18,232 bases of DNA, taken from a virus (lineage: Duplodnaviria > Heunggongvirae > Uroviricota > Caudoviricetes). Location of the stretch: IMG/VR virus record IMGVR_UViG_2778261667_000006, positions 1-18,232 of that record. One strand, 5' to 3'. Below, one piece after another: positions 1,689 through 18,232 of this stretch. The notes below the pieces were generated by a model that was not told the DNA's origin, ran no database searches, and saw nothing but the letters and a program-made list of their open reading frames with translations. The position numbers and the translations under genes were made by a program. Numbering within the stretch: the stretch's first letter is position 1; each line of letters opens with the position of its first letter.

Positions 1689-1690
1689 AA

Positions 1691-2225: not shown

Positions 2226-2233
2226 GAGTGTGA

Positions 2234-3079: not shown

Positions 3080-3089
3080 GTCAACCTCA

Positions 3090-4520
3090 TTACGGATAAG
3101 AAATGCTGAACGTAGAAGATTTTACGTCAAGATAAATAAAGTCATTAAAGTAAACAGCATCCTTCATATTTTGTATTTTTATGTCATAAGAGAGAAACAT
3201 ATCCAGTGATTCTATTACTCGCCAAATATCTTTAACTTTTACCTGTGCATAACATTGCTGGGAATCATCATCACTCTGTAGTAATAAACTGAATGATGAC
3301 GAATCACGACCAAAATTATCTTCCAACGCTGCTTTAATAGCATTTTGAGCGTCGTCGATCAGAACATTTTTACGTGCAATACCTGTAAAATTTATAGTAA
3401 ATGGCTGTTCATTTGTATCTACATACTCGAACCGCTTGTTCAACTCATTTGGAACATTCTCTAGAGCTTTCAGTATTTCTGATTTTAGCTGAGCTTGGCT
3501 TACACCCGGCTTATGTCCGCAAAAGAAAATCTTGTTGATGTTTCGAACGTCAAACCCAGTTATTTTTTCTTGTAACGCTTCGCCCCAAACGTTCAACCAT
3601 GAAGTTCCATGTACAACATTCTGAATGAATTGGCGATAATCACCGCCCCATACCACTTGTTCATCGTATGCAACATAATACTGAGCACGATTTCGAGTTT
3701 CTTCTGTAGTTTCCATGCCACTACCACCGGTAATGATCGAATCAGTTTTAAACTCTAGTGACTCCACATATTGAGCGATATTTCCAACCGGTTCTAACTT
3801 TTGTCCTTCAGCCAAAGTATAGTCGCCAAGACTAGCCATAACATCAATTCGAACCTGACAACCTGCTGGCGGCATCATACCCATAGAGCCATCACCAAAT
3901 TTAACTCCAAGTTGTTCTGTAGGTTTATATGCCAATGAATAGTGCTTACTCTTGTCTCTGGACATTCTAAATAATGGGTTATATGTCCATTTTTCTTCTA
4001 CGCCATCTGTAATAACATAAACGTCTAGGCTAGAGACTTCTTTTGTTAACTCTCTGGAAAGCAACAACGTCAGAAATAAAGTTTCCTTCTCAATATCAAA
4101 TGTAACGCTAACAGCTTCGTGCTGTTTGATTTCTACGCCAGAAACAGTTCCTCCAGCAGGAACCACAACACTATTAATAATTGCCAAAGGTGTTTGGTCA
4201 TTAGCAAGCAATTCAGCCCCGGCTGGTAACGTAATATCCCGATCAGTTTTATTGGTTATAGACGTTGTTCCGTATGAAGCACTAACAAATCGCCCTACGT
4301 AGCTACGGTCTTCAGCAACAGCTAAAATACTTGAGCGGCGCGTAGCCGTTGAAATAAGTCCCTCAGTGAGTCCACGGCTTGCAAATGTACGGGCAATATA
4401 AATAACCTGTGATCCGAATATAGCGTGCATCTGCACAAACTGACTATTTACAAATCGTGACCACCATGTGTTTTCATTTAACTTGGCGTTAAATTTGTCC
4501 AGTAATTCTGTAATAGTCAC
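3090..4520 (-). CDS. Baseplate J-like protein, 476 aa
   Basis: ORF-track frame with a GTG start at 4520-4518 overlapping the upstream gene's TGA stop (GTGA, coupled). Size and position directly after a gpW/gp25-like gene match the conserved W-J-I-fibre order of contractile-tail baseplate modules. Confidence 0.5.
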   Translation of the reverse strand: MTITELLDKFNAKLNENTWWSRFVNSQFVQMHAIFGSQVIYIARTFASRGLTEGLISTATRRSSILAVAEDRSYVGRFVSASYGTTSITNKTDRDITLPAGAELLANDQTPLAIINSVVVPAGGTVSGVEIKQHEAVSVTFDIEKETLFLTLLLSRELTKEVSSLDVYVITDGVEEKWTYNPLFRMSRDKSKHYSLAYKPTEQLGVKFGDGSMGMMPPAGCQVRIDVMASLGDYTLAEGQKLEPVGNIAQYVESLEFKTDSIITGGSGMETTEETRNRAQYYVAYDEQVVWGGDYRQFIQNVVHGTSWLNVWGEALQEKITGFDVRNINKIFFCGHKPGVSQAQLKSEILKALENVPNELNKRFEYVDTNEQPFTINFTGIARKNVLIDDAQNAIKAALEDNFGRDSSSFSLLLQSDDDSQQCYAQVKVKDIWRVIESLDMFLSYDIKIQNMKDAVYFNDFIYLDVKSSTFSISYP

Positions 4521-4891
4521 GCGCCCACCCCACTTGATTTCTGCATAACAATATCCATGCTCCCACCTTTCGCATAAAAACTAATTAATAAAGAATCTTC
4601 AGAAATTGATGTGCAACGAATCCCCTGCACATCCAAACCTGGCAAGTCTTGTCGTAGTTTTTTCATCATTCTCCCTTCAATAGCCACTTCAACTATGTGT
4701 GAAGTTTCAGAGCCGAATGGTTCATGCTTAAATTCTTCCATTGGATTCCCCCAAGAAGGTAAGCCATAAACACTCCCTTCAGGGGTTCGTAGCCACTCGT
4801 CAAGGCGGGCCATCCACGCTGCGGTACTTCCTTCTGCAATAATGACACCGCTCTCATTCGTTTGAAGTCTTGCGTCTATTTCGTAAAGCAT
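4517..4891 (-). CDS. Baseplate wedge protein, gpW/gp25-like, 124 aa
   Basis: ORF-track frame; ATG with GAGGA upstream. The segment LDEWLRTPEGSVYGLPSWG resembles the ILRTPxGSR core motif I recall from P2 gpW / T4 gp25 family proteins; size and position fit. Confidence 0.55.
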   Translation of the reverse strand: MLYEIDARLQTNESGVIIAEGSTAAWMARLDEWLRTPEGSVYGLPSWGNPMEEFKHEPFGSETSHIVEVAIEGRMMKKLRQDLPGLDVQGIRCTSISEDSLLISFYAKGGSMDIVMQKSSGVGA

Positions 4892-4896
4892 CGGTA

Positions 4897-7800
4897 TTAA
4901 TCCTCAAGTAGAGCATCCAGCGACGGGTCATTAATAGTTGTGCTCGCACGTGGCCGCGGCTGCGGCTGCGATGTTTTGACAACCTTATCTGGATCTCCTT
5001 TTGTATCATTTTTGTTCACATTAAGAAGGTCTTTCAGAATAGAACAGATGTTATCCAGCGCCTTCAACATAGCAGGATCGTTATTTGCGGTGTCAGTAGT
5101 TAATGGTTGTCTTATTCCGCTTCGAGCAAGATCGGTTACTGTGGGAAGCTGTGGCGGCATAGCAAGAAAAGGTTCCTGCACGGCTGACGCAGAGCCAAAT
5201 ATGGTATTATTTGCCTCAGTTGATATTCCCCTGATGCTATCAGCGGTTTGCTGAATACCATTATTTAGCCAACCACCAGCACTTCTTGTAAGTGGGCTAA
5301 TCGCCCTGGCGATTGTTGAATTCTGCCCTGTAGCCTGATAGACAAAATCATTCAATATGCCAGTGCCATCGATGCCACCAACAAGTTGTGAAATGTTGTC
5401 ACCAATTGCAGGTAATACAGCCGAACCAATGCGCTTCATACCTGTTAATGACGAATCAAACAAAGAGCCAAGAAATCCCTTATCTTCGCCGTCTATTATC
5501 TTATTGCCATTGTTATAGACAGGAATTCCTTTTGAGTTTACTGGTGTTTTTTTATTATCTGTTGACTGTGAATCGCCAGAGAGAAGATCGACCGAAGATG
5601 TATCGCGTTCAGGTGCCGATCTTTTTTGTATAGCCTCTCTGATATCAGCCACCTGGGGAGCTTTTTTGAATCCAAAAGATTTACCGGTCAAGTTGGATAT
5701 CTTTTCGGTCAGAGCTTGATCCATTCCCTTCGCCTTTTCAGAGAGCGAAGATATAGAACCAAATGAAGTAGCTGACGCAAAATCCTTAACCAAGTCCAGA
5801 CTTGTACCAGCAAGACTGGTAGCCGCACCACCAAATAAATTACTTACTCCACTGATACCGCTTTCATTTATGGCGATTAACCGCTCAAGCAAACTCGATG
5901 GCGAGGCAGTATTAACATCAGAGTTCTCTGGATTAACCAGTTGTGGTTGGTTACCTGTTTTTTGTGTTTTTTTTGCTGCTTGGGCATGTTGAGCAACCTC
6001 AATTGGCTTAGGTGTTGCTGTTGGAACTGCATTCAATACAGGTTGTGCCGGAGATGTGCCATCAGCATATTTCACCTTGCGACCAACACTATATTGCGAA
6101 TCACGAGCAATTAGCTGACCGCCATTCTCTTTCTGAATTTTATTAAGCCGCGCCAATGTTTCATCGGAGAAACGCCCTTCCCAACGACCAGTATTTGCGT
6201 TGAATACCCCAAGGGCATTCTTTATGAACTCATTGTTAACCGCCGGGTTTCCGCCTTCTTTAGTCGCTATTGCGCGAACTAATTGCGTCATAACCTCTGG
6301 GTTGCCTACGTCTATTTTTTCATTAGGCGAGACACCAAGATATTTGCTGACGTTATCAATATATTGATTAGTATTGTTCTCCTTTGGGGGTGCCCATTTT
6401 GAAATAATACTGGATACCGTTTGTAACTTCTGATATCCGGCAGCGGCACTGGTGCCGTTATAATAGCTGGATACTTGGTTTGCCAGCGCCCTGATTCCTT
6501 CTTCAGGCGTGTTGAATCGGGCAAAACGCTGTTCACCTTTTGCATTTGGCGCTTCCAGCGTCGCCCCTTCCTGATTGGCAAAAACAAGATTGCCGAGATT
6601 ATTATTTCGGTAATTTCGGTTTTTAGCGTTGCTGCCGCCAATATTCAGATCAGCTGCAATGGTGTTGCTGGCAGGGGCATTAAATTCAGCCGGGGAAGTA
6701 TACCCGTGCTCACCAACACCATCTTCACCATCACGCCCGCCTTGTAGCTGCTCACCTAAAGAATGAATCGCATCAACGGTCTTCTTGGTGCCATCCTCAA
6801 CCGCTTTTTTTACTTGCTGCGTGTTTTCATCAGTGGATAAAAATTTATCCTTAAGGCTACCAAAAGCAGATTTAGTGATATCTACTGCGCCATTAACACC
6901 ACGCGCAATATCTCCGGTATCAAAATTCTGAAGTTTTTCACCTGCCCTTTCGAAGCCTAACGCAGAAATTCCTTTGCCTATTAGATTGGTTGCACCAGAA
7001 ACTAAGCCTCCCATATCAAGAACATTAGCGGTTGCGTAAGCGGTTTTTTGCTGTGTGGATACAACATCATCATCACTTAAGCCAAAGGCCGCTTTTTGCG
7101 CATCTGTATCTGTGTAACCATCTATAGCGTCATATCCAGCCATTGCCAACGACCCGATGATGGGGATCGCTCTTGCTGCTGTTGATGCTGCCGATTTCAC
7201 ACCTATTTTGGCAGCACTTTTGAGGGCTACAGATTCAGTTTTTTTCTTTGCAATGGTTTCACCGGTTTTAACTGCGGCATCTTCGGTAACGACACCGGCA
7301 GACTTAACGGCTTTTGCAGTATTTTTTGTTTCTTTAGCAGCCCCCTTAGAAGCGTCACTAGCCGTGCTTATATCTTTGGCTTTGCTAACATTAGTTTTAA
7401 CAGTCTTTGCAGTTCCTGCGCCAACGCCAGCCGCAGCGGTTCCGGCAGCGGCTTTTTCTCCAACGGAAAGGGCTTTTTTCCCCAGATTGCGTCCTTTCCT
7501 TTTCGGTTTGTGTCGTTTATTTCTGCTGGTCTGATCGCCAATATTGATTTTATTTCTTCTACCTGGCCGATTTCTCCAGAGATCACTTAAGCCGAACTTA
7601 TTCCCAGAAGACACCGACTTGCGAAGCTTAGCTACTTCGTCAGAGACATTTTCCAAACCATCAATTATTTTGTTGTCATTGGCCTGAAGAATTTTTGTTT
7701 GCTCTTCTACTGCTTGTGTAGATCTTGTCTCAACTGCATTATTAAATGCAGTTGCAGAGGTTGTTTTTTGTGCATTGGATGCAGCCGGATAAGTGATCGC

Positions 7801-8637
7801 TGGCGATTTCGCTTCGTGATCTGGTGGATTATCTACCCACTCCTTAAGAGATTTTGTTTTCCCTGTAATCTCTTTTGTTATGTCATACATGCCGCGAGCC
7901 GCCATCCATAACGGGCCACCAGCACCGACACCAGCAGCATTTGTTATGGCTTCTTCACCTGCAGACTGATGGCCATCCATCCCCATAATGGAACCTAGTT
8001 TTCGGAGGAAGCCTGCTTGTAATTTTGCGTCGGCTTTACGCGCGTTCTGCAATTCTTTTTTTCTGGCTATATCCTCATTGCTTTTCTGGGATACAAAGCG
8101 TCCATTACTATCCCGAATCGGGCCTTTTGGGCTTTGGGGGGGTTGAAGTTCCAGAGAGGCAGAATTAGCTGCTACCGGTATAGAATCTTTCGACCTTTTG
8201 ATGGACTGGCGTGATCGCACAGAATGAACGCTTTCTGGTGTGTTAGTTGCAACGATAGAGCGATCTATGCCCTGGTCTATTAGTGCCCTCTCCTTTTTCG
8301 CAGGAAGACGTTTTTTATATGGATTAGTTTGGGCATCTCTAACGACATCAGGAGCGTCTTGCTCGTAGTTTTTACGCCTACGGGATAGCCTGTTACTAAC
8401 TTTACCTTGCTGTCCTCCCTGTTGAGTTATAGCGACACCACCAGAAAGAATGGCGTCTTTTATCTCAGCAAGTGCCTTAAGTTCGTTTGCGCTCGCCCCC
8501 TGAATGGCGTCAATTATTGCGATTCGGTCTTTATTTTCTTTCAAAATAACCTCTCTTTTACCAGCGGCGCTCAACGTTTCCCGGCTTGAGCTTTGTATTT
8601 TTCTTCCAGGGCTTTTGACATATGGAGTGCTCGCCAT
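4897..8637 (-). CDS. Large tail protein, 1246 aa; tape-measure-like / P1 Sit-like candidate
   Basis: Single 3.7-kb frame. Basic N-terminus, Ala/Gly-rich hydrophobic glycine-zipper-like segments (AAAGVGAGGPLWMAARG, AAGTAAAGVGAGTAK, IPIIGSLAMAGYDAI), a central globular-looking block (NLGNLVFANQEG...FARFNTPEEGIRALANQVSSYY...ISKWAPP) and a low-complexity C-terminus. Lies directly upstream of the baseplate genes. Weak SD at the ATG. Confidence 0.6.
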   Translation of the reverse strand: MASTPYVKSPGRKIQSSSRETLSAAGKREVILKENKDRIAIIDAIQGASANELKALAEIKDAILSGGVAITQQGGQQGKVSNRLSRRRKNYEQDAPDVVRDAQTNPYKKRLPAKKERALIDQGIDRSIVATNTPESVHSVRSRQSIKRSKDSIPVAANSASLELQPPQSPKGPIRDSNGRFVSQKSNEDIARKKELQNARKADAKLQAGFLRKLGSIMGMDGHQSAGEEAITNAAGVGAGGPLWMAARGMYDITKEITGKTKSLKEWVDNPPDHEAKSPAITYPAASNAQKTTSATAFNNAVETRSTQAVEEQTKILQANDNKIIDGLENVSDEVAKLRKSVSSGNKFGLSDLWRNRPGRRNKINIGDQTSRNKRHKPKRKGRNLGKKALSVGEKAAAGTAAAGVGAGTAKTVKTNVSKAKDISTASDASKGAAKETKNTAKAVKSAGVVTEDAAVKTGETIAKKKTESVALKSAAKIGVKSAASTAARAIPIIGSLAMAGYDAIDGYTDTDAQKAAFGLSDDDVVSTQQKTAYATANVLDMGGLVSGATNLIGKGISALGFERAGEKLQNFDTGDIARGVNGAVDITKSAFGSLKDKFLSTDENTQQVKKAVEDGTKKTVDAIHSLGEQLQGGRDGEDGVGEHGYTSPAEFNAPASNTIAADLNIGGSNAKNRNYRNNNLGNLVFANQEGATLEAPNAKGEQRFARFNTPEEGIRALANQVSSYYNGTSAAAGYQKLQTVSSIISKWAPPKENNTNQYIDNVSKYLGVSPNEKIDVGNPEVMTQLVRAIATKEGGNPAVNNEFIKNALGVFNANTGRWEGRFSDETLARLNKIQKENGGQLIARDSQYSVGRKVKYADGTSPAQPVLNAVPTATPKPIEVAQHAQAAKKTQKTGNQPQLVNPENSDVNTASPSSLLERLIAINESGISGVSNLFGGAATSLAGTSLDLVKDFASATSFGSISSLSEKAKGMDQALTEKISNLTGKSFGFKKAPQVADIREAIQKRSAPERDTSSVDLLSGDSQSTDNKKTPVNSKGIPVYNNGNKIIDGEDKGFLGSLFDSSLTGMKRIGSAVLPAIGDNISQLVGGIDGTGILNDFVYQATGQNSTIARAISPLTRSAGGWLNNGIQQTADSIRGISTEANNTIFGSASAVQEPFLAMPPQLPTVTDLARSGIRQPLTTDTANNDPAMLKALDNICSILKDLLNVNKNDTKGDPDKVVKTSQPQPRPRASTTINDPSLDALLED

Positions 8638-8691
8638 TGCGGTAATTGTTCAACGTCACTAACGGGCTGATATCCATACAGAGTCAGGTTG

Positions 8692-9513
8692 TTAATAATG
8701 GTTAGCCATCCATTCAGATCTAATTGATGGGATAAACTCTCTATTGAGAAAGGGGACGTACAGCGTGGTAGTCACGTCTGCACCCTCCTTAACGTTTTTG
8801 CATCGTTGTGGAGGCAGGATCAGGCGGCTTGTGCCTCGTTCAATAGCCATTTTTAAGCCGTGGCGAAGGTCTTTCTGCATGAGCTGAATGCGAGCTACCA
8901 GAGGGGTAAACTCGGTTTCCAGTGCCATGTTTTCAATAATATCGAATCGTCTGTTTGCAGCTTGTGTGAAGTCCTCCGGATCATCTTCAAGCGCCGTGCA
9001 TAAAGCGAGTTCAGCAATCCGCATACGTGCCACGCCAGCACTGTATTCGGGGCTTTTCATATCAGGAAGTGATGCCCGCATACGCTCAAGGAGTTCAGCG
9101 CCTTTCCCGGTTAATGGTTTAAGTATCCAGTCAGTTGGTACACCGTTAACTGGTACGTTGGTTTTTACGTAAGGCGGTACAGTGAGTATCTCTACTGTTT
9201 GAGCCAGATCACTCAGGTTTATATCAGCGTGATGCGTATTACCGCAGTGACCGCACTCATAGGAGTAGGTCATTACTGCATCGGGGCGCGAATTAACAAA
9301 TATCCACCAAAGGGCAGTTCTGCGATCCTGGACTGTCCAGTAAGCACTGTCGTTAATTTCACCATCCTGCATGGAGTTAAGGTACTCTGTAGTAGTTGCC
9401 TCATCTTCTGCCGGGTTCAGGTCAGAATATTTCAGCGCATCCTTCACGGTGGGTGCGTGGAACTGAATTTCTGTCTCAGGACGGGAAGGCAATGGGAATT
9501 TTGGAATGTTCAA
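8692..9513 (-). CDS. Hypothetical 273-aa protein, first gene of the leftward operon diverging from oriR; possible tail assembly protein by position
   Basis: ORF-track frame; ATG with GGAGG 12 nt upstream; contains a CGHCGNTHH cluster. No family recognised. Confidence 0.55.
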   Translation of the reverse strand: MNIPKFPLPSRPETEIQFHAPTVKDALKYSDLNPAEDEATTTEYLNSMQDGEINDSAYWTVQDRRTALWWIFVNSRPDAVMTYSYECGHCGNTHHADINLSDLAQTVEILTVPPYVKTNVPVNGVPTDWILKPLTGKGAELLERMRASLPDMKSPEYSAGVARMRIAELALCTALEDDPEDFTQAANRRFDIIENMALETEFTPLVARIQLMQKDLRHGLKMAIERGTSRLILPPQRCKNVKEGADVTTTLYVPFLNREFIPSIRSEWMANHY

Positions 9514-9599
9514 GTATTCCTCCGATAAGCAGGTGTCTGTTTATTCGTTGGAGGATAGGTAGTGTGTGAAATTGGGAGGAGCTTTGTAATTCTTCTTTT

Positions 9600-9608
9600 T
9601 TATCCACA
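9600..9608 (+). promoter_or_regulatory. DnaA box, perfect consensus TTATCCACA, at the outer edge of the origin
   Basis: Exact 9-mer read from the sequence; position relative to the GATC cluster and iterons matches P1-type oriR architecture. Confidence 0.6.
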
Positions 9609-9612
9609 GGAT

Positions 9613-9662
9613 AGATCCAATATATAGATCCTGATTAGATCCATATAGTACCAAACAGATCC
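9613..9662. promoter_or_regulatory. Cluster of four GATC (Dam) sites in AGATCC(A) heptamer-like repeats within an AT-rich stretch; origin-opening / methylation-control region
   Basis: GATC at 9614-9617, 9627-9630, 9638-9641 and 9658-9661, each within AGATCC, lying between the DnaA box and the iterons. Confidence 0.6.
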
Positions 9663-9708
9663 CGTAGCTCTTCAGGCCGTGTCACATAAGGCTTTAACCA
9701 CATTTCAG

Positions 9709-9812
9709 ATGTGTGCTGGAGGGAAAACGATGTGTGCTGACGGGAAATATATGTGTGCTGGAGGGTTTTACATGTGTGCTGGCGGGATGTAGGATGTGTG
9801 CTGACGGGAAAA
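9709..9812 (+). repeat. incC-type iteron array: five direct 19-bp RepA-binding repeats (ATGTGTGCTGGAGGGAAAA and variants) at about 21-bp spacing
   Basis: Repeats start at 9709, 9730, 9751, 9772 and 9794. The sequence matches the P1 plasmid iteron consensus as I remember it; five repeats upstream of repA is the P1 incC arrangement. Confidence 0.85.
9766..9794 (+). promoter_or_regulatory. Putative sigma70 promoter of repA embedded in the iterons (-35 TTTACA, 17-bp spacer, -10 TAGGAT); expected to be autorepressed by RepA
   Basis: Hexamers read from the sequence; they overlap iterons 3-5. Autorepression through promoter-iteron overlap is established for P1 repA; its application here is inference. 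Confidence 0.35.
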
Positions 9813-9820
9813 AAAGTCGG

Positions 9821-9829
9821 ATATCCACT
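9821..9829 (+). promoter_or_regulatory. Possible second, imperfect DnaA box (ATATCCACT, 7 of 9) between the last iteron and repA
   Basis: Sequence match only. Confidence 0.25.
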
Positions 9830-9867
9830 GTCGTAAACTTTATTCACAACATGACGGTAACTTATTG

Positions 9868-10728
9868 ATGGATAAGTCATTTATCTCTGATATTCTTTAT
9901 GCTGACATTGAAAGCAAGGCAAAAGAATTAACAGTTAATTCGAACAATACTGTTCAACCTGTCGCGCTTATGCGGCTTGGTGTTTTCGTCCCTAAACCAA
10001 CTAAAAAACAGGGTGAAAACAACGAGATAGATGCATCATCTGTTTTTTCTAAACTGGAAATCGCTCAAGCAGAAGGCTACGACAATATCAAGATTACTGG
10101 TCCTCGTTTGGACATGGATACTGATTTCAAAGTCTGGATTGGGGTAATCTACTCATTTAGCAAATATGGCTTATCATCGAACACTATTCGTCTTTCTTTT
10201 CAAGAGTTTGCAAAGGCGTGCGGATTTCCATCTAAGCGACTTGATGGGAAATTAAGAAACACGATCCACGATTCTTTAGGTCGGTTACGTAACAAAGGCA
10301 TCTCATTCAAAAGAGGTAAAAGTGCTCGTGGAAGCTATAATACTGGCTTGCTTAAAACGGGATATTTTGACTTTGAAACAGATGTCGTTGAACTGGAGGC
10401 TGATTCCAAGTTATGGGAAATCTTCCAGCTAGACTATCGGGTGCTTCTACAGCAACACGCACTTCGTGCTTTACCTAAAAAAGAGGCAGCCCAGGCCATA
10501 TATACCTTTATAGAAAGTCTCCCGGCACGGCCAATACCTATTTCATTTGCCAGAATACGTGAAAGATTAGCCTTGATGTCATCGGTAAGTGAGCAAAACA
10601 GAACGATAAAAAAAGCTATAGACCAGTTAAAAACAATAGGTTATCTCGATTGCACTATTGAAAAGCAAGGACGAGAAAACTTTATTATCGTTCACTCTCG
10701 GAATCCGAAACTTAAACCAACAGATTAA
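9868..10728 (+). CDS. repA: Plasmid replication initiator RepA (P1/IncY iteron-binding type), 286 aa
   Basis: Frame flanked upstream by five and downstream by seven copies of the same 19-bp iteron. The ORF track starts at TTG 9865; I prefer the adjacent ATG at 9868. The only plus-strand gene in the window. Confidence 0.88.
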   Translation: MDKSFISDILYADIESKAKELTVNSNNTVQPVALMRLGVFVPKPTKKQGENNEIDASSVFSKLEIAQAEGYDNIKITGPRLDMDTDFKVWIGVIYSFSKYGLSSNTIRLSFQEFAKACGFPSKRLDGKLRNTIHDSLGRLRNKGISFKRGKSARGSYNTGLLKTGYFDFETDVVELEADSKLWEIFQLDYRVLLQQHALRALPKKEAAQAIYTFIESLPARPIPISFARIRERLALMSSVSEQNRTIKKAIDQLKTIGYLDCTIEKQGRENFIIVHSRNPKLKPTD

Positions 10729-10950
10729 ATGTGTGCTGAAGGGATAGATTCATACCTGGATGTGTGGTGGAGGGAATTTCGGGGGATTGCTTACTTCAGA
10801 TGTGTGCTGGTGGGATAAATGACGCTCTTTACATGCAAAATTCCCCTCCAGCACACATGTTTCCATTATCATTCCCTCTACAACACATCTTGAGCAATGG
10901 GGTTGCCCGGCAGCACACATTTAACGTAACCCCTTCCCTCCAGCACACAT
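10729..10950. repeat. incA-type iteron array downstream of repA: three direct and four inverted copies of the 19-bp iteron (copy-number control locus)
   Basis: Direct copies at 10729-10747, 10760-10778 and 10800-10818; inverted copies (TTCCCTCCAGCACACAT type) at 10841-10858, 10871-10888, 10903-10920 and 10933-10950, spaced about 30 bp apart. Confidence 0.8.
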
Positions 10951-10962
10951 AATTAAAGCGTT

Positions 10963-11670
10963 TCAGAATTTGATCACTCCACTAACCGCTCCCTTTAACG
11001 CACTTGTAGCCATGCCAGCGGCACCGTTGACCAAAGCAGAAACACCTGAGCCAGCGGATGTGTATTTCTGGAAAGTGATTGGGTATGACAAGAACTCTGA
11101 CACCTGATCACGTGAGCGGGTTATTTCCCCAAGTTGCGTAGGAAATACGCGCATTTCTTCTTCCAGTTCTTTTCCGCCGTCCTGAGTTACCCGATAGAGA
11201 CGGATTTTCATCAGATATTCAGGAGGTAGGTTTATTGTACCGTCCGGATTTGTTACGCGAGAACGACGCTCTTTGAACCAGTTCATGATCTTGCCGTCTT
11301 CGGTATCTCTTACGGTCATAGTGACAGGTCCGGCGCTAACGTAGGTTGGTTTACTGAACTCCACGCTGCCTATCACCTTGCTTTCTGTCTCAATGTTCCC
11401 ACTGCTGTAGGTGATATCCTTCACGAACATATCGAAGCCGTTCAGACCATCCACTTCCACGGTCCACTGCCACCCCTGGGCGTAACGGATACGCATAGCG
11501 GCAGCAACAATATTTTTCCCGTAGGCAATATCGCTACTGTAATTCCCGCTTACCCCGCCGCCTGATATGGCTTTATCAAGAATGTCGCTAATGAGGTTGC
11601 TGGTGAATGATTTCGTGTTAAATGACAATGCGGTGGTCAACGTTCTACCAACGCTGCTGAAAATACTCAC
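10963..11670 (-). CDS. Hypothetical structural protein, 235 aa
   Basis: ORF-track frame; GTG start with GGAGG 7 nt upstream; its stop is 12 bp from the last incA iteron. No motif recognised. Confidence 0.55.
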   Translation of the reverse strand: MSIFSSVGRTLTTALSFNTKSFTSNLISDILDKAISGGGVSGNYSSDIAYGKNIVAAAMRIRYAQGWQWTVEVDGLNGFDMFVKDITYSSGNIETESKVIGSVEFSKPTYVSAGPVTMTVRDTEDGKIMNWFKERRSRVTNPDGTINLPPEYLMKIRLYRVTQDGGKELEEEMRVFPTQLGEITRSRDQVSEFLSYPITFQKYTSAGSGVSALVNGAAGMATSALKGAVSGVIKF

Positions 11671-11685
11671 TCTGCGCCTCCAGCG

Positions 11686-12237
11686 TTAAAAAATGGTAGC
11701 CCCCGGAATAATTGCCCGATTTGAAGACATTTTTTCCTCAATCTCCTGCACGCGGGCATATAGCGTTGCTTCATCGGGTAGATCGGAGTAGTCAAATTTC
11801 CCGTCGATGGACGCTCGGCGCTGCCGTGCGACATTTCTGACATTGATAAGCGCCTCCAGATATTCCTCCAGCATTCCAATGATTGCAGGAGGCACTTGCC
11901 ATTGATCCAGCTTTCTGTCGCGTAGATTAACCAGATACAGCATCCGAAAAGGCCAGCTTTCCGAACCTGTTAGCTCTAATTCAATAAAGCCGGATAATTC
12001 ATCCGAATATACCAACAGGCCATTGTTGTCGGTAACATGAACCAGAGAGAGATAATCTTCTGGCAATGGGATTGCCGTGCCACTAGCTTTTTCAAGTTTT
12101 AATGTTTTCACTACCCCTGCCCTGTCCTGATACGTTGTTAGTGCTTTGATCAGGAAGGCTTTCAGCGTTTCTTCTTCACGCACAAGCAGTGGGTTAAATC
12201 GTGCTTTAACGCTTTCTAATAATTCGGTTGGTGTCAT
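11686..12237 (-). CDS. Hypothetical structural protein, 183 aa
   Basis: ORF-track frame; ends 15 nt before the 235-aa gene start; weak SD. The overlapping 70-aa ORF at 11667-11879 is treated as spurious. Confidence 0.55.
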   Translation of the reverse strand: MTPTELLESVKARFNPLLVREEETLKAFLIKALTTYQDRAGVVKTLKLEKASGTAIPLPEDYLSLVHVTDNNGLLVYSDELSGFIELELTGSESWPFRMLYLVNLRDRKLDQWQVPPAIIGMLEEYLEALINVRNVARQRRASIDGKFDYSDLPDEATLYARVQEIEEKMSSNRAIIPGATIF

Positions 12238-12249
12238 CGTGTCTACAAC

Positions 12250-12284
12250 TCAAAAACAAAGATGTTCCCGCCACAAGGGCGGGA
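12250..12284 (-). terminator. Intrinsic-terminator-like hairpin (7-bp stem TCCCGCC/GGCGGGA, 5-nt loop) followed on the minus strand by a T-rich tract (ACATCTTTGTTTTTG)
   Basis: Inverted repeat at 12266-12284 and downstream T-run read from the sequence; sits just after the stop of the 163-aa tube-like gene. The T-tract is interrupted, so it may be a partial terminator. Confidence 0.4.
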
Positions 12285-12291
12285 GCGGGGA

Positions 12292-12783
12292 TTATTCTGC
12301 CCAGTTGTAAACAATACGCAGGGAAGGCTTAACGACTGCCGTTACGTCTTCTGAGGAGAAGTCGACGGCGTCGGAATATACTTTGCAGTGAGAATATGTG
12401 CGGATCAGACCTTTATGGTTGCCGCTATTGGATTCAGCCGCTGCCTGTAAGGTAATTTCCTGATATTCTTTGCCGTATACCATTTGTTTTACAGCGGCGA
12501 GAACTGCGCCCTCGATGGTTTCTGCACATGTGACCTGAAATTCACCAGAGTTACGTAGTGGTCCGTGCTGGTTGAATTTCATGCCGCCAGGAGCGTAATC
12601 TTCCACATCTTCGCGTGTCATTTCTGGTAACTGAGCAGTACGAACCAGTACAGACAGATGCTCATAACCTTTAATGGTCATCCAATATTCAGAGCCAATA
12701 AGTTTTTCGCCCGCAGCCAGGTTTTTATTAAACCGGGATTTCAGAAAGGCCATATCGGCTTTTGTATTTGCAAAACCGGACAT
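12292..12783 (-). CDS. Tail tube-like protein, 163 aa (T4 gp19-like candidate)
   Basis: ATG with AGGAG 6 nt upstream. Same length as T4 gp19 and a similar C-terminal ending (...VYNWAE versus gp19 ...DYWE as I recall it); followed by a terminator-like hairpin, as is common after abundant tube genes. The resemblance is remembered, not computed. Confidence 0.45.
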   Translation of the reverse strand: MSGFANTKADMAFLKSRFNKNLAAGEKLIGSEYWMTIKGYEHLSVLVRTAQLPEMTREDVEDYAPGGMKFNQHGPLRNSGEFQVTCAETIEGAVLAAVKQMVYGKEYQEITLQAAAESNSGNHKGLIRTYSHCKVYSDAVDFSSEDVTAVVKPSLRIVYNWAE

Positions 12784-12791
12784 AAATACTC

Positions 12792-13382
12792 CTACACAAA
12801 AACAGATGAGATATTGCTACGGTTAATAGAGGTGTTTCCGCTGCATTGCAGGGTTACCGTGTTATGAGTGAAATAGCCTTCCGGTGTGCGCGGGGCGTCC
12901 AGTTGGTAACTCACGCTTTTGATAACAACGTCGGTAAGGGCTATGTTTCTACCTATGTTTAACGTTACCGTTTCCGGGCGGCGACCGAATGGCGCTACAT
13001 TGTTCAATTCCGGCGATTCCATCTTCAGCAATGCTGTAATGGCTGCGTTCACTTCGAGTTGTGCGTTCACTGTCGCCATGAAATCAATAACCAGATTAAA
13101 TTCAGGCGGTTGCTGACCTTCCCAAACAAGCATTGAGTTAAAGAGGGTCTTTGTTGTTACGCTGGTTGCGGTCTGAAGTGTATCCGCAAGAGAGCCAGCC
13201 GCTGCGCTAATACCGCCAAGCAACCCACCGACTGACTGGTTTTCAAATGGTGATTGCCACATTGATGACAGTTCTGCGGTAGAGCCTTCACCGATATAAC
13301 CGACGACCATATCCTCAGTGGAGAGGATATAAACCTTCATTAATGGACTTATTCCGTCAGGCATTATCGCGCCGCAAATCAA
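12792..13382 (-). CDS. Hypothetical tail protein, 196 aa (possible second tube-family or tube-associated protein)
   Basis: ORF-track frame; start is TTG at 13382 with a strong GGGAGG 8 nt upstream and an in-frame TAG immediately before; the internal ATGs lack an SD. Confidence 0.5.
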   Translation of the reverse strand: MICGAIMPDGISPLMKVYILSTEDMVVGYIGEGSTAELSSMWQSPFENQSVGGLLGGISAAAGSLADTLQTATSVTTKTLFNSMLVWEGQQPPEFNLVIDFMATVNAQLEVNAAITALLKMESPELNNVAPFGRRPETVTLNIGRNIALTDVVIKSVSYQLDAPRTPEGYFTHNTVTLQCSGNTSINRSNISSVFV

Positions 13383-13431
13383 ACGCTATTCCTCCCAGAT
13401 AGAGGCCACCTTTGCAGGCGGCCTGTGTCAC

Positions 13432-14166
13432 TTACAAGCCGCGTTTTTTGCGAATTCGCATTGATTTTTTGCGGTTGATATTCGCTACGGATGTATGCGC
13501 TTTACGGCGTGCTTTTTTCAGCGCCTGTTTTTGCAGTGACGTCATGCGGCGAGGGCGCGGGCGCTTGCGGATAATGGTAACCTTGCCATCACGAACAACT
13601 TTTTTACGTACCGCTTCCAGCATTGCGCTGTCACCACCAGCAACGGTGTAAATGGCAATAGCCGCTTCCAGCATGTCGCCGTCGCTTTCGGAAAGTGCGT
13701 CATATACACGTTCAGCAGCAGAGTCATCTTCATCGTCGATCATTTCTGTTACGTCGTCCTGATCCGCGCCAAGAGCAACAGCGGCATCAGCAAGGGCTGC
13801 GAGAGCATCGTTATAAGCATCGATTTGTTCATCGGTAAAATCGGTGTCTTCATCGATATCAGCCAGGCCAGCCATAGTGATTGCTAATGCATCAAATGAG
13901 TCAGCCTCCGGATCACCATCTTCAACCCAACCTGCAAGCATGGAAGCCGCCAGGCTGCGCATATCTCCTTGTGCGCGAGACTCAACCGCTTCCATCATCG
14001 CGGTTTCAATATCTTTTTTGGGCTTTGCTTGAGTGTTAGCTCCTTTCTGTTCGGCGCTTTCCAGCATGGCTTTATCATCATTTCCCGGCGTGGATTTATC
14101 ACCGCTTTCAAAGCAGCCAGAACCAAAAATCGCACGCATAAAAGGATCAGCAGTATAATTTTTCAT
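13432..14166 (-). CDS. Strongly acidic protein with a poly-basic C-terminal tail, about 244 aa; function unknown
   Basis: ORF-track frame 13432-14190, but the first ATG lies inside a hairpin; I prefer the ATG at 14166 with GGAGAGAGG upstream. Residues about 80-200 are Asp/Glu-rich; the last about 45 residues are Lys/Arg-rich (KRPRPRRMTSLQKQALKKARRKAHTSVANINRKKSMRIRKKRGL). Confidence 0.6.
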   Translation of the reverse strand: MKNYTADPFMRAIFGSGCFESGDKSTPGNDDKAMLESAEQKGANTQAKPKKDIETAMMEAVESRAQGDMRSLAASMLAGWVEDGDPEADSFDALAITMAGLADIDEDTDFTDEQIDAYNDALAALADAAVALGADQDDVTEMIDDEDDSAAERVYDALSESDGDMLEAAIAIYTVAGGDSAMLEAVRKKVVRDGKVTIIRKRPRPRRMTSLQKQALKKARRKAHTSVANINRKKSMRIRKKRGL

Positions 14167-14181
14167 TTTCAAACCTCTCTC

Positions 14182-14201
14182 CCCCCGCATTTCTGCGGGG
14201 G
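14182..14201 (-). other. Intercistronic stem-loop (8-bp stem CCCCCGCA/TGCGGGGG; GAAA tetraloop on the mRNA strand), no U-tract
   Basis: Perfect inverted repeat between the 552-aa gene stop (14209) and the SD of the acidic protein gene. Confidence 0.4.
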
Positions 14202-14208
14202 TAATAAA

Positions 14209-15867
14209 TCAGCGCATCAGAATTGGCTTACCGACGATGCGGCGAGCTGTACCGGTTGGGCATACAGACCAGGACACTTCCCACAGATCGATGTCTTTCT
14301 GGACAACCTGGACGACATACGGTTCTTCTCCCTGAGATTGGTCACGTGGAGTCACCAGCGCACCAGACGCAACGAAGCGGTCAAGCAATTCGGTCATTGC
14401 CTTCATTAGCGTTTCTTTAGTAATGCCATCTGGTTCATGCTTAATTGTCTGAGCAACCTCATAGAAATTGCGGGCAATAGCATTCATCAGAGACGAAACA
14501 TGCTGGAATCGCAGATAGTTGTTTTTACTGAAAGTTGTTAAAGAGTCGTCGATGTAGACAGAACCATCAGCAGCAACAGAAACTGGATTAATGCGCGCGG
14601 TAACGAACGCTTCACGATCAACTGCACCGATATTTGGAATTCGGGCAATATTCTGTCGGTCAATAGTCGCGCGAGATATGCCAGCCGGAGCGTAATGCCA
14701 ACCGCCAACATCAGAAACCAGCGCAACACCTTTCGCTTTTGCGACAAATGCATCGCAACTGATGCCGTAAACAACATTCATACCAGTGAAGGTATCCCGG
14801 CAGGAAAATGGGAAGTAGTAACGGCTTGGTTGATGTGAGCCGCCAAAACTATGGCTTTTGGCTTCTGAAATGGCATTTTCTGGTGTCTGGTTGCCCTTCA
14901 GGTCGTAGAACATGTCTACGCGAACGTCTTCAGCCAGATTTTTGAGCGCGGCTAAGGCGGATGCGTCATAGCAGCCCAGTGACAGCAATGCGGTGTAATT
15001 AACCTCTGAAGCTTCGAGGACTTTTAATGCTTCCAGATAGTCTTCAGTGTCAATGGTGGACAGATCGCCATCAGTGCCGCCTTCAAAAGCTACATCCTCA
15101 AACATGAGTTGAGCAGCAGATGCTTCCGCATTATCTGCCAGGACGGCACCAATGCGAGTGGACTGGCTTTCAAGCAGTGTCGGAATCCATGCTGGTTGGC
15201 CCATGTCGTTAGTGCCTTCTGGATTGAAGGACACCTGGTGGCTTTCCAGCACCTCAACGGACCCATCGGTTTGTTTTTCTTTCAGCGTCAGCGTAAAGAG
15301 TTCGCTTTCTTCATCATCGCGAGTTAGTGATAACATGCGATTTTGAGATGCATCACCATCTTTGATGAAGAATACGGCCATCCCATCATCGTTAATCTGG
15401 GGTGTCTCTTTTGGAGTGAAGGTGACTGATTTCGTTGTTGCAGTTGAAGCAATACCAACGCTCAATGTGTCACCTGGATTTACTGTGGTTTCAGTAGGCT
15501 CCACGGTAAGTGTTTTGTTTGCCTTAGCCGCTTTTGCTCTGCCCGCAACGGAAACAGAAATACCTGGCACCTTCATGTCTTTAGCGCAAACACGAACGAC
15601 ATAACCAGAGCCGCCTTTTACTGCACGCTCCACGTGGCGGTATGGTTCAAATGCTGATCCCAGGCGAGGGTGAATAGGTGAACCTAATACGCTTTGATAA
15701 GTCGTATCGTCAACTTTCAGCACTTTACCCGGTGCGCCACGACGCGATATTACAAGTCCAGCAAAGACGGATGCGCCACCGCTGGTATTGGTGAGGGTAG
15801 CGTCAGCATTTACCGACATAACAGCGACGCCAGCCGCCTGCCCTACCGAAAAACTAATCTTATTCAT
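14209..15867 (-). CDS. Tail sheath protein candidate, 552 aa
   Basis: ORF-track frame; ATG with GAGGA upstream. The N-terminal pattern (...SVFAGLVISRRGAPGKVLKVDDTTYQSVLGSP) resembles the sheath N-terminal pattern I recall from T4 gp18-type proteins; size and position upstream of tube-like genes fit. Confidence 0.5.
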   Translation of the reverse strand: MNKISFSVGQAAGVAVMSVNADATLTNTSGGASVFAGLVISRRGAPGKVLKVDDTTYQSVLGSPIHPRLGSAFEPYRHVERAVKGGSGYVVRVCAKDMKVPGISVSVAGRAKAAKANKTLTVEPTETTVNPGDTLSVGIASTATTKSVTFTPKETPQINDDGMAVFFIKDGDASQNRMLSLTRDDEESELFTLTLKEKQTDGSVEVLESHQVSFNPEGTNDMGQPAWIPTLLESQSTRIGAVLADNAEASAAQLMFEDVAFEGGTDGDLSTIDTEDYLEALKVLEASEVNYTALLSLGCYDASALAALKNLAEDVRVDMFYDLKGNQTPENAISEAKSHSFGGSHQPSRYYFPFSCRDTFTGMNVVYGISCDAFVAKAKGVALVSDVGGWHYAPAGISRATIDRQNIARIPNIGAVDREAFVTARINPVSVAADGSVYIDDSLTTFSKNNYLRFQHVSSLMNAIARNFYEVAQTIKHEPDGITKETLMKAMTELLDRFVASGALVTPRDQSQGEEPYVVQVVQKDIDLWEVSWSVCPTGTARRIVGKPILMR

Positions 15868-15905
15868 GCTGTGTTCTTATCCTCTAAAGCGAGAGAACTA
15901 GGCAA

Positions 15906-15930
15906 GGCTACCCACGGTTAATGGGCAGCC
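15906..15930 (-). other. Imperfect intercistronic hairpin (GGCTaCCCA / TGGGcAGCC, 7-nt loop)
   Basis: Inverted repeat with one mismatch, between the Ig-like gene stop and the sheath gene start. Confidence 0.25.
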
Positions 15931-15935
15931 TCTGA

Positions 15936-16214
15936 TCAGGATTCGCTTACCGTGAAATTGTCGCCTACGGTTACTTCTTTCGTAGTCGGTTCAACACTGA
16001 CGGCGCTTACGCTTTTAGGTGCCTCCCTAACAGTGACTGTGCACTGTGCGGTTTTATTGCCGTCATTGGTTTTGATTGTCAGCACTGCCTGCCCGGCCTT
16101 AAGAGCGGTACATGTAGTGCCATCAACCTGGACAATTTCAGGGTGATCGGACTCAACAGTGAAAGATTTGTCTGTTGCGTCAGATGGCGAGATAGTTACT
16201 TGAATGTTTGCCAT
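15936..16214 (-). CDS. Ig-like (Big_2-type) domain protein, 92 aa; probable capsid decoration or accessory protein
   Basis: ATG with AGGAG 7 nt upstream. The sequence VTISPSD...FTVESD...TALKAGQAVLTIKTNDGNKTAQCTVTV has the strand pattern of a bacterial Ig-like domain; the C-terminus (SVSAVSVEPTTKEVTVGDNFTV) looks like the first strand of a second, truncated copy. Confidence 0.6.
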   Translation of the reverse strand: MANIQVTISPSDATDKSFTVESDHPEIVQVDGTTCTALKAGQAVLTIKTNDGNKTAQCTVTVREAPKSVSAVSVEPTTKEVTVGDNFTVSES

Positions 16215-16227
16215 TCTTTTCTCCTGA

Positions 16228-16254
16228 ACGCCCCTTATTCAGGGGCGTGTTTTT
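16228..16254 (+). terminator. Plus-strand intrinsic terminator (8-bp stem ACGCCCCT/AGGGGCGT, 5-nt loop, then GTTTTT) inside a minus-strand operon
   Basis: Perfect inverted repeat followed by T5 on the plus strand only. On the minus strand the same hairpin sits directly upstream of the SD of the Ig-like gene, with no U-tract. Confidence 0.45.
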
Positions 16255-16361
16255 GCCTTACTTCTGCTTTGTTTTTTTCTGTGCCTTTGAAGTGTTCGCG
16301 GCGATAGTTTCACCTTCATCTACGTCAAGTGACGTTGGTGATACCGACACGTTCGCCACCA

Positions 16362-18059
16362 TCACTTTTTTTCGTTAACCTTGCCTGACAGAATGTCGAT
16401 AGCACCTTCTTTGGCACGAGTCAGACGCAGGCGGGTGAAGTAGTTTTCACCGTTGCGAGGATGTACTTCGTTGATGGCACTGCCCCAGAGAGTGGTACGG
16501 TTAACGAGAGACGGATTGGTTTCATGCACGTAAGGGATTGCAGGGACTGCATCACCAGCAATCAGACCGGCTTTACCAATACCTTCGCCACGCCCATAGA
16601 AGAAGATGTCATCCAGCCCGAAGTCATATCCCTGTGCCTGGAATTGCTCACATACAGGTTGCGGCACTTCGTAAATACGAATCGTGCCAAACAAGGTGCC
16701 GATGTACTGCACATACGGCGACTGAACATAACCCGGTGCGATCTGGAAGTGCTGTGGGGGCAGAGAGCGCAGGAAGTTCGCGGCGTCACCACCAGCAAAG
16801 CCGCCTCGAATACCCGTTGTCAGCGTGCGATTTGCCATTTCCTGAGACAGAGCGTTTACTACGTGACGCAGGAGGCCGACCCAGGACTCATAGTTTTGAG
16901 CTTCCGGCAGAGCCACATCAAATTCACGGCCATAAACGGTATGGAATACTAGGGTGCGCAGCCGCATGATGTCGGTTTCATGGGAGATCCAGTTACGCAT
17001 TGCGGAGAACTGAAGTGCTGCCAATTCAAGGCCGTGTTCGCGGCTTAAATCGGAAGCGGACATTACTGTGTGTTCGGAAGCAATTACGTACTGAGACGGG
17101 CGCACTTCATACTTGCGCATAGCCTGGTTGATTACCGGAATCAGGCTTGGATTGCGCTCGATGTTAATTTCGACCTGAACCGCAATTTCAGTCCCTTCTG
17201 CTGGCGCTTGAGTGAAGGTAATGTCGATGACACCAGTGTCATAAGCGACTTTTGCGGTAGCGGAGAAAGCATTGCCTTTGCTGTCTTTATCATTGAAATA
17301 AAGGTTGCCATCGCCGTCGTCAACCTTGGACGGTTTGCGGTTGATCAGCAGTTTGTTATAACCAGCGCGCAGCGGGCAGGATTGGCCCTCAAAATTTTGG
17401 ATGTCGAACTGGAAAGTTTTGGTGCTGCCATCCCCTTTAGTGGACAGGGTATACAGACGCTTCATTTGAGAATAAACGCCTGCGGACTGCATATTCAGCT
17501 CGTCACCTTGCTTGAAGGTGCCGAATTTTGTGCCTGCTACGTTGACCAGTTCATAGATATTTGACTCGTCACGATCACAAGGAACAAAAGTACAGGCATC
17601 ACTGGTAGCAGCGCCCAGAGAGGCAGGCAGAATTAGTGCAGCATATTGAGCAACTTTCATTACGCCGTCAGAGTTACGCATTGATTGCGCGACAGACTCA
17701 AACATTGCCTTACCAGTGCCTTCGTGTGTATCACTGGCACATTCAGTCATCAGGCGTTCAAGTGCCATGTGTGCGTTTGCCAGGATGTCGCTTGCTGGGT
17801 AGTGCCCATGCTGACGCTTGTACTCATGCAGAGACATAGCCCACCCACCAGCGATCTGGCGTGCAACCTCTGGATTTACGCCTTCGAACATAGGCACTTT
17901 CTGGATTGCTTTATCCAGGTTCTCCATCATTGCTGCCTGATCAGCAATCATATTGCCCGCAGCATCGGTGGTCGGATCGACGGTCATAGCCATGACGCTT
18001 GCCGCCCGATTCATAATCTCGCGCTCGCGATCACGAGCTGGCTGAATGTTTTTATTCAC
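16362..18059 (-). CDS. Major capsid protein candidate, 565 aa
   Basis: ORF-track frame; GTG start at 18059 with AGGG upstream and an in-frame TAG 4 codons upstream; preceded by an AT-rich non-coding region (18060-18232). Assignment is by size (about 62 kDa, comparable to what I recall for the P1 gene 23 precursor) and by position before decoration and sheath genes; no motif verified. Confidence 0.5.
   Translation of the reverse strand: MNKNIQPARDREREIMNRAASVMAMTVDPTTDAAGNMIADQAAMMENLDKAIQKVPMFEGVNPEVARQIAGGWAMSLHEYKRQHGHYPASDILANAHMALERLMTECASDTHEGTGKAMFESVAQSMRNSDGVMKVAQYAALILPASLGAATSDACTFVPCDRDESNIYELVNVAGTKFGTFKQGDELNMQSAGVYSQMKRLYTLSTKGDGSTKTFQFDIQNFEGQSCPLRAGYNKLLINRKPSKVDDGDGNLYFNDKDSKGNAFSATAKVAYDTGVIDITFTQAPAEGTEIAVQVEINIERNPSLIPVINQAMRKYEVRPSQYVIASEHTVMSASDLSREHGLELAALQFSAMRNWISHETDIMRLRTLVFHTVYGREFDVALPEAQNYESWVGLLRHVVNALSQEMANRTLTTGIRGGFAGGDAANFLRSLPPQHFQIAPGYVQSPYVQYIGTLFGTIRIYEVPQPVCEQFQAQGYDFGLDDIFFYGRGEGIGKAGLIAGDAVPAIPYVHETNPSLVNRTTLWGSAINEVHPRNGENYFTRLRLTRAKEGAIDILSGKVNEKK
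16365..16372 (-). other. A-AAA-AAG slippery heptamer within an A7 run, ending at the capsid stop codon (candidate -1 frameshift or transcriptional slippage site)
   Basis: Minus strand reads GTT AAC GAA AAA AAG TGA. The -1 frame continues for 35 codons (VMVANVSVSPTSLDVDEGETIAANTSKAQKKTKQK) to a TAA at 16260-16258. Confidence 0.3.
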
Positions 18060-18232
18060 GGTTAAGCCCTAAATTCGGGCGCGGCGTGAAGGTTCTTTTG
18101 ACGAGCTAACAATACCAACTTTGTGATTTAGTCAATAGCATTAGCAAAATAAAATCTGTTAACAGTTCCGTTGTTATGTGATTTAATTTTAGTTTTCTAA
18201 TACAAATTATTGGACGTATGGCGTATAAGATC
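18060..18232 (-). promoter_or_regulatory. AT-rich non-coding region upstream of the capsid gene; probable late-operon promoter region, element not identified
   Basis: No plausible ORF and low GC; no confident -35/-10 pair found, consistent with an activator-dependent late promoter. Confidence 0.25.

Follow-up and report, generated by a model that had tools for sequence, protein, structure and literature searches.

The question raised by the virus record IMGVR_UViG_2778261667_000006 (IMG/VR; Caudoviricetes; positions 1 to 18,232), whose analysed stretch of 18,232 nucleotides is called the window here, is whether all ribosomes leave its major capsid gene at the stop codon, or whether some of them slip into the −1 frame and add an immunoglobulin-like (Ig-like) tail to the capsid protein. 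A preliminary description of the sequence had proposed a programmed −1 frameshift at this place, with a decayed relic as the alternative. From the comparison among relatives, and not from the window sequence alone, we conclude that a conserved −1 ribosomal frameshift very probably yields a minority form of the capsid protein, extended by a 35-residue tail. The window is a plasmid prophage of the P1 family and is D6-like. Its bases 15850-16700 are 98.2% identical to Escherichia phage D6, and the same stretch was matched in 107 plasmid records from E. coli, Salmonella and Shigella and also in plasmids of 83 complete E. coli genomes. The minus strand carries, in this order, the major capsid gene, a 35-codon open reading frame (ORF), a hairpin, a gene for a 92-amino-acid Ig protein and the tail sheath gene. 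The major capsid protein gene (18059..16362, minus strand; 565 amino acids) is a homologue of P1 gene 23, and its coding sequence is 98% identical to that of the D6 major capsid protein. The protein belongs to the P1 gp23 / T4 gp23-like family, with PF07068 matched on distant homologues.

In the zero frame the capsid gene ends GGC AAG GTT AAC GAA AAA AAG TGA, that is, ...NEKK and a stop. The slippery heptamer A_AAA_AAG was present where the preliminary description had placed it, in the correct zero-frame register (gA AAA AAG; 16371..16365, minus strand), and the TGA (16364..16362, minus strand) abuts its 3' side. Starting at the heptamer's G (16365), the −1 frame encodes the 35 residues that had been described, VMVANVSVSPTSLDVDEGETIAANTSKAQKKTKQK, which begin VMVANVSVSPTSLDVDEGET and end KQK before a TAA at 16260..16258, just before the hairpin. 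This extension ORF (16365..16258, minus strand; 35 codons and TAA) comprises strands A/A' of a Pfam Big_2 domain and a Lys-rich tail. In the GenBank and RefSeq records of D6 it is a separate hypothetical gene, orf50, starting at an ATG that overlaps the capsid stop, and the NCBI pipeline left it without annotation in the plasmid records. In the proposed mechanism, the majority of ribosomes would stop at the TGA after ...NEKK and yield the 565-amino-acid major capsid protein precursor. The single E. coli tRNA-Lys would re-pair one base back on A_AAA_AAG, and some ribosomes would go on in the −1 frame from Val (GTG), adding 35 residues to give ...NEKK-VMVANVSVSPTSLDVDEGETIAANTSKAQKKTKQK. The predicted junction peptide of this fusion is ...NEKKVMVANVSVSPTSLDVDEGETIAANTSK ((K)VMVANVSVSPTSLDVDEGETIAANTSK), and the fusion would exceed the processed capsid protein by ~3.8 kDa. 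In E. coli, A_AAA_AAG is more prone to shifting than any other heptamer, because the one tRNA-Lys of the cell pairs better with AAA than it does with AAG (Atkins et al. review, PMC5009743), and it is not present in the 306 genes that this bacterium expresses most strongly (PMC5009743). For this reason, it is notable that the heptamer is fixed in a phage gene of very high expression.

Capsid homologues and their loci were gathered from GTDB genomes, IMG/VR, plasmids and individual metagenome contigs, which gave 103 usable loci, and additional metagenome contigs were found by a pattern from the downstream coding sequence. An in-frame A_AAA_AAG was found in the last capsid codons of 35 of the 103 loci, followed by a −1 ORF that starts V-x-V-[AT]-[NG]-[VLI]-S. 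These loci make up at least 8 sequence lineages, and their capsid identity to the window ranges from 99% down to 69%. The heptamer was invariant in all 35 loci carrying the −1 peptide; in the additional contigs (16 of 16) it was intact and the −1 ORF was open. Over these 51 sequences the −1 ORF was uninterrupted down to 69% capsid identity, with an open length of 24-45 codons across lineages. The conservation of the heptamer and of the −1 frame in homologous capsid genes, which the preliminary description had suggested as a check, was thus found for both.

Around the fixed heptamer, the zero-frame tail, the stop codon (TGA, TAA or TAG) and the distance from heptamer to stop were variable. Sister lineages of the window have TAA or TAG in the place of its TGA, and in other lineages the stop lies two codons further downstream. 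NEKK is followed by TAA in L003, with the −1 peptide VMVANVSVSPTSVDVNEGETIAASTSKAQKKTKQK, and by TAG in L043 and L010, with the −1 peptide VAVANVS...; the zero frame ends GGDAKK-TAG in L104 (−1 peptide VAVAGVSVSPTDVDVTVGDGITTGTKSARQKRK), DTGKKSQ-TAA in L103 (VPVTGVSVAPDKVEVTVGEPIETKTKSRKKP), GDTGKKSE-TAA in L105 (VRVTGLSVLPTSLAVAVGDTIAF...), EEEKKSE-TAA in L049 and L106 (VGVTGVSVSSDGQELSEGDSFAIE) and GDEKK-TAA in L108 (VSVTGISVSQATLECSPGDNVLFVD). The first A of the heptamer is supplied by a GAA, GCA or rare GGA codon, depending on the lineage; GGA accounts for 15% of the Gly codons here and has this role in two lineages. As a protein, the −1 peptide is kept in all lineages. The ratio of non-synonymous to synonymous differences per site (pN/pS) in the −1 frame was 0.4-0.6 within D6-type sequences (window versus L010: 7.7 synonymous and 12.3 non-synonymous differences), and this measure is only supportive because the counts are small. 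The other two frames contain 2-3 stops, and in them pN was at or above pS in most comparisons. A variation typical of non-coding sequence, which would have spoken against the frameshift, was thus not what these few substitutions indicated for the −1 frame.

The homologous peptide is also found fused in frame, without the heptamer, to the capsid proteins P0012 (599 amino acids, 74% identical; ...GTVVEGVTLSPASITVSAGDEITAGNTKKDS) and P0013 (604 amino acids, 69% identical; ...SEVEGVSLAPQKISVSVGDEITTSNTKKDS). In a neighbour-joining tree of the capsid core the whole group was monophyletic, the heptamer-bearing L108 split first, and the in-frame lineage of P0012 and P0013 was nested among the heptamer lineages. 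This nesting and the early branch of L108 suggest that the frameshift arrangement, in the simplest reading, is ancestral and has persisted for a long time. In more distant relatives (P0046, P0047, P0059, P0060 and P0063; L018-L020), the Big_2 domain is complete and is an in-frame fusion. Two loci, L002 (NZ_MK356557.1) and L007 (NZ_CP031917.1), were set aside as error-ridden assemblies in which neighbouring genes are broken by indels. The 599-amino-acid RefSeq 'capsid protein' WP_250208243.1 of L007 is a capsid-extension fusion made by a 2-nt deletion in the A-run, and the breaks in both loci look like homopolymer sequencing errors, not natural fusions.

The extension ORF could instead be an independent small gene, as the GenBank and RefSeq annotation of D6 has it, in which termination and re-initiation at TGATG would give a free peptide (orf50, 34 amino acids) and no capsid fusion. 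ATG and GTG codons do stand at codons 1-3 of the −1 ORF in the window and in the D6, L003 and L006 types. However, the ORF begins GTA GCA GTG in L010, L043 and L104, without the ATG of the orf50 annotation; it contains no ATG, GTG or TTG at all in L049 and L106; and its sole candidate start in L103 is a GTG at codon 16, past strand A. In the open −1 stretch upstream of the heptamer, no start codon was present in any lineage examined. Therefore, the strand-A peptide can be expressed in these last three lineages (L049, L106 and L103) only by frameshift. Moreover, the ORF is not preceded by a Shine-Dalgarno sequence, in P0012 and P0013 the homologous peptide belongs covalently to the capsid protein, and an independent gene would leave the invariance of the heptamer without a reason. 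We consider a separate gene to be very improbable. The decayed relic of the preliminary description fares no better. It would be a remnant of an in-frame C-terminal Ig domain without meaningful expression, and the heptamer would be a chance pair of Lys codons. Such a remnant would agree with the complete in-frame domain of the distant relatives and with the fact that the extension is only a domain fragment; the string AAAAAAG is also common in the A-rich DNA here, with 13 copies in the window against 7.0 ± 2.7 expected, and is therefore not rare. In the X_XXY_YYZ register, on the other hand, A_AAA_AAG has a single copy, at the capsid gene end, among the 14 minus-strand genes (about 4,700 codons), and AAA-AAG encodes just 2 of the window's 18 Lys-Lys pairs. 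Decay also does not fit a fragment that has the same short extent in all lineages, with a −1 ORF unbroken in the 51 sequences, a peptide retained in frame in the nested lineage, a heptamer kept even at the cost of a rare GGA codon, and a pN/pS below 1 in the −1 frame only. With these observations against it, a relic has scarcely any likelihood.

The same fusion would also result from RNA polymerase slippage on the A-run, by which some transcripts gain one extra A. The window has 7 consecutive A, and one inserted A yields the identical protein (...EKKVM...), so that protein data cannot separate a ribosomal from a transcriptional shift. However, the feature that is conserved is A6G in the X_XXY_YYZ register and not the length of the run, and the run has only 6 A in L103, L104 and L105. 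Efficient slippage of the E. coli RNA polymerase generally requires runs of ~9 or more, and therefore the runs of these lineages are too short for it. The related Rosenbergiella prophages described below carry G_GGA_AAG with a hairpin 6 nt downstream, which is a purely ribosomal signal. Slippage of the polymerase thus appears highly unlikely as the source of the fusion. Two routes that would reach the Ig gene itself were rejected. A translational bypass over the hairpin in the style of T4 gene 60 would land on an AAG codon that is out of frame, and the extension ends vary; for stop readthrough from the extension into the Ig gene, the frames differ in the window and D6 and are shared only where a 1-nt intergenic deletion is present.

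Several points weigh against the frameshift. The stem TGGTG/CACCA, which the preliminary description had placed behind the heptamer, is there, with TGGTG starting 3 nt past the heptamer and CACCA 16 nt further, but it is not conserved, being lost in L010 and L043, which have CAGTGG in place of GATGGTGG. A longer, irregular hairpin with the helix GUGGCGA/UCGCCGC was predicted by RNAfold at 16290..16367 (minus strand), starting ~5 nt past the heptamer, and is a possible stimulator. Its minimum free energy is −30.7 kcal/mol, with a z of −4.7 against dinucleotide shuffles, but against synonymous recoding with permuted or random codons it is unexceptional in the window (p 0.10-0.18), and the structure of L010 reached p 0.016-0.07 at best. 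This hairpin is not conserved outside the D6, L010 and L104 lineages and is absent from L049, L103 and L105. An upstream Shine-Dalgarno-like stimulator is an optional feature of −1 frameshift sites, and no shared element of this dnaX type was found among the lineages (ggcaaggttaacg, gggcaaatcaacg, gataccgg, gaagaag). In addition, the ATG overlapping the TGA in the D6 type permits coupled re-initiation as an additional route, and pN/pS is based on few substitutions. The adjacent stop codon may add to the shifting in the D6 type; in other lineages the stop is two codons off. As no stimulatory element is established, the frameshift efficiency could be only a few percent. Together, the conserved heptamer, the open −1 ORF, the in-frame fusions and the lineages without a start codon support the −1 programmed frameshift at the capsid end that had been proposed.

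The length of the extension has its counterpart in the gene that follows. This Ig-like gene (16214..15936, minus strand; D6 orf49, 92 amino acids, 'structural protein with Ig domain') has its own AGGAG ribosome-binding site, and its product matches Pfam Big_2 (PF02368) with an E-value of 2e-7, in agreement with the Ig-like domain that had been seen in it. Residues 1-62 cover strands B-G, corresponding to profile positions 23-79 of 79, and strands A/A' are missing. The extension, whose resemblance to a first Ig-like strand had also been pointed out, corresponds to Big_2 positions 1-22, which are strands A/A'. It had no Pfam hit when searched alone, and neither the extension nor the 92-amino-acid protein gave a whole 79-position Big_2 match within one polypeptide. 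When the two were joined, the match extended over positions 2-79, and the score was 39.8 bits as compared with 32.9 bits for the core alone (+6.9). Concatenations with shuffled extensions (n=9) scored 32.1-32.5 bits, with no gain and no full-length alignment. Five other lineages joined likewise gained 0.3, 7.1, 7.7, 4.4 and 3.7 bits, and the start of the profile match moved from position 22-23 to 1-2, so that joining gave the full-length match in all 6 lineages. These results indicate that the capsid extension is the missing N-terminal quarter of the Ig-like domain of the next gene. The extension equals precisely the part that the next gene's product lacks, and its shortness is a conserved feature and not a sign of decay.

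The two parts also occur together. The incomplete Ig gene was present in all 39 loci with a strand-A extension (35 frameshifted and 4 in frame) and in none of the 64 loci without one; of the latter, 56 have other tails, short or of low complexity, 6 have complete in-frame Big_2 domains and 2 are of the Rosenbergiella type. Both the extension and the Ig gene are missing from P1 (the P1-like loci L022 and L023), which is the only phage covered by its virion proteome paper (PMC9024508). The C-terminal tail of the Ig-like protein (residues 63-92, REAPKSVSAVSVEPTTKEVTVGDNFTVSES; 16028..15939, minus strand) is itself a second A/A' copy. This module, VSAVSVEPTTKEVTVGDNFTVSES, matches the capsid extension in length and motif, is conserved in all lineages, and aligns in register with the inter-domain linker and the next-domain strand A of tandem Big_2 proteins. 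AlphaFold2 predicted the 92-amino-acid protein with a predicted local distance difference test score (pLDDT) of 91, with strands only in residues 18-62 and none in the tail. By Foldseek, ~61 residues superpose on solved Big_2 domains, with a root-mean-square deviation of 1.0 Å to 7quz, and a match to the C-terminal Ig-like domain of lambda gpV was also obtained. The in-frame extension of P0012 was predicted to be disordered (residues 568-599, pLDDT < 50), with the capsid body confidently folded. In one metagenome contig (L108:3330-3868, capsid P0014), two Ig genes follow the frameshifted extension; one product is a 68-amino-acid Big_2 core with neither strand A nor an A/A' tail, and the other, of 91 amino acids, has core and tail.

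What the two parts might do together can be proposed from their sequences. It is possible, with somewhat less than even chances, that strand complementation by the tail anchors the incomplete Ig protein, perhaps with chaining via that protein's own tail. All the anatomy described above agrees with this, including the full-length match after joining, the joint occurrence in the 39 loci, the predicted disorder of the P0012 extension and the tail-less core of L108. The frameshifted tail, which would be disordered alone, would supply the strands missing from the downstream protein, complete its Ig fold in trans and thereby tie the Ig protein to the capsid surface as an anchor. The A/A' tail of the Ig protein could then bring in another copy of this protein, so that Ig domains would form short chains held together non-covalently, and the number of anchor points per capsid would be set by the frequency of frameshifting. 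The linker between strand G and the tail strand A in the Ig protein has ~6 residues, and we infer that with this length the tail would not reach its own domain's far end, which favours complementation in trans. In a more elaborate and slightly more tentative form of this proposal, the locus would encode a natural split Ig domain, in which the capsid carries a 'tag' (A/A') and the 92-amino-acid protein is a 'catcher' (B-G) with a tag of its own; head-to-tail chains would grow from the frameshifted subunits, the 68-amino-acid catcher of L108 would cap them, and the shift frequency would set the fibre density. Two considerations speak against such anchoring. The extension and the incomplete Ig gene occur in one monophyletic clade, so the 39 loci probably represent one origin and joint retention, not repeated co-evolution; and the Ig protein's own tail may dock in cis.

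The capsid family has a second frameshift signal, in two Rosenbergiella prophages. In L014 (4694-4735) and L076, the homologous capsid gene ends GCG GGA AAG TGA, which contains the lambda heptamer G_GGA_AAG, and a perfect 9-bp hairpin, CGGTAGACG-loop-CGTCTACCG, follows after a 6-nt spacer. The −1 frame has 72 open codons and is rich in Ala, Gln, Asp and Lys, like the in-frame tails of other family members. Judged from its sequence, this site is an independent candidate frameshift, and it suggests that recoding of the capsid C-terminus arose more than once in this family.

Several further features of the locus were observed. The interval between the extension ORF and the Ig gene contains a GC-rich 8-bp hairpin (16248..16228), and in every related lineage an equivalent hairpin sits behind the capsid gene or behind its extension. 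It scores as an intrinsic terminator of the plus strand (T-run GTTTTTGCC), antisense to the structural genes. The T-run is on the plus-strand side only, and the sense strand has none; in some relatives, L103 for example, it is the sense side that carries the T-run. A near-repeat flanks the Lys-rich tail, the hairpin and the ribosome-binding site (16214-16290, minus strand), with one copy in the extension (GCGAACACT, ...AAN T) and the other at the start of the Ig gene (GCAAACATT, M-AN I). The segment within the near-repeat looks as if it had been inserted into a formerly continuous Big_2 coding sequence. In L005, L006, L025 and L041, a 1-nt deletion in GGAGAAAAGAATG (equivalent to window 16215-16222) moves the ribosome-binding site closer to the start codon and brings the extension ORF and the Ig gene into one frame with a single TAA between them. 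In the IMG/VR contig L038, the end of the extension (equivalent to 16258-16285) is altered to ...AQKKQSRSKAKTRP by a length change in the second A-run (CAGAAAAAAACAAAG), and strands A/A' are intact. As to the other AAAAAAG strings of the window, 5 of the 13 (5621-8061) lie in a sit / tape-measure-like gene (4897-8637, minus strand), and none of these is in the X_XXY_YYZ register.

E. coli and Salmonella commonly carry D6-like plasmid prophages. In public annotation the extension is an unrelated hypothetical gene or is absent, and a virion protein gains a corrected annotation when the frameshift is recognised. The P1/D6 capsid family would be added to the phages in which one gene gives rise to two coat proteins, with the unusual feature that only the first Ig-like strands are kept on the capsid protein and the remainder has moved to a separate gene. 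If the two parts reassemble, they would represent a new way to attach decoration proteins to a capsid, a testable example of translational recoding that sets the stoichiometry of a surface structure, and a natural peptide/domain pair of possible use in phage display.

Ig-like C-terminal extensions of coat proteins made by frameshifting are known from T3, A2, A118 and A500, and in-frame and frameshifted Ig-like extensions alternate among related phages (PMC5009743); the preliminary description was right to call them a known phenomenon. T3/T7 gene 10A-10B and the head protein of Lactobacillus phage A2 resemble the present case in that a −1 shift at the end of the coat gene gives a minority extended shell protein, and the extensions of T3 and A2 are Ig-like, as here (PMC5009743). 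They differ in that T3, T7 and A2 append whole domains or longer tails with other slippery sequences, while here 35 residues (A/A') are appended and the rest lies in a separate gene; their capsid protein family is also different from the P1 gp23 / T4 gp23-like family. E. coli dnaX, which encodes gamma and tau, uses the identical A_AAA_AAG and the same single tRNA-Lys (PMC5009743). The dnaX site is flanked by a Shine-Dalgarno-like stimulator upstream and a strong hairpin downstream, neither of which is demonstrable here, and its shift leads to early termination, whereas here the protein is lengthened and the zero-frame stop directly follows the heptamer or comes two codons later. In the class of Fraser et al., as far as it is described where cited (PMC5009743), a Big_2-type module stands at the C-terminus of a structural protein, in frame or by frameshift. 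The capsid family here shows both modes, being frameshifted, in frame and partial (P0012, P0013) or in frame and complete (P0046, P0047, P0059, P0060, P0063); judged by the same citation, it differs in that the module is split over two polypeptides and only a fragment is appended. The frameshifted Ig-like extension is thus of an established kind, and the split between a capsid tail and a separate gene is the difference, of which we found no description. Our literature search for capsid decoration by donor-strand or strand complementation returned nothing relevant, and the D6 genome paper may already mention the frameshift.

Lambda G/GT shares the heptamer G_GGA_AAG and a hairpin with the Rosenbergiella relatives at the end of their homologous capsid gene; the gene and the product differ from the 72-residue capsid tail of Rosenbergiella, and this is not the site of the window. 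For the proposed reassembly, the analogies are the donor-strand complementation of chaperone-usher pili and the engineered split Ig-like SpyTag/SpyCatcher pair. In both, an Ig-like fold lacks an edge strand and the matching strand is on a separate polypeptide, as is seen here at the level of sequence. No isopeptide chemistry is indicated here, unlike in SpyTag/SpyCatcher. In chaperone-usher pili the C-terminal G strand is missing, whereas here it is the N-terminal A/A', and there is no chaperone or usher. As in these pili, a protein that has a core and also a donor strand could form head-to-tail polymers, and the core-only protein of L108 could act as the cap.

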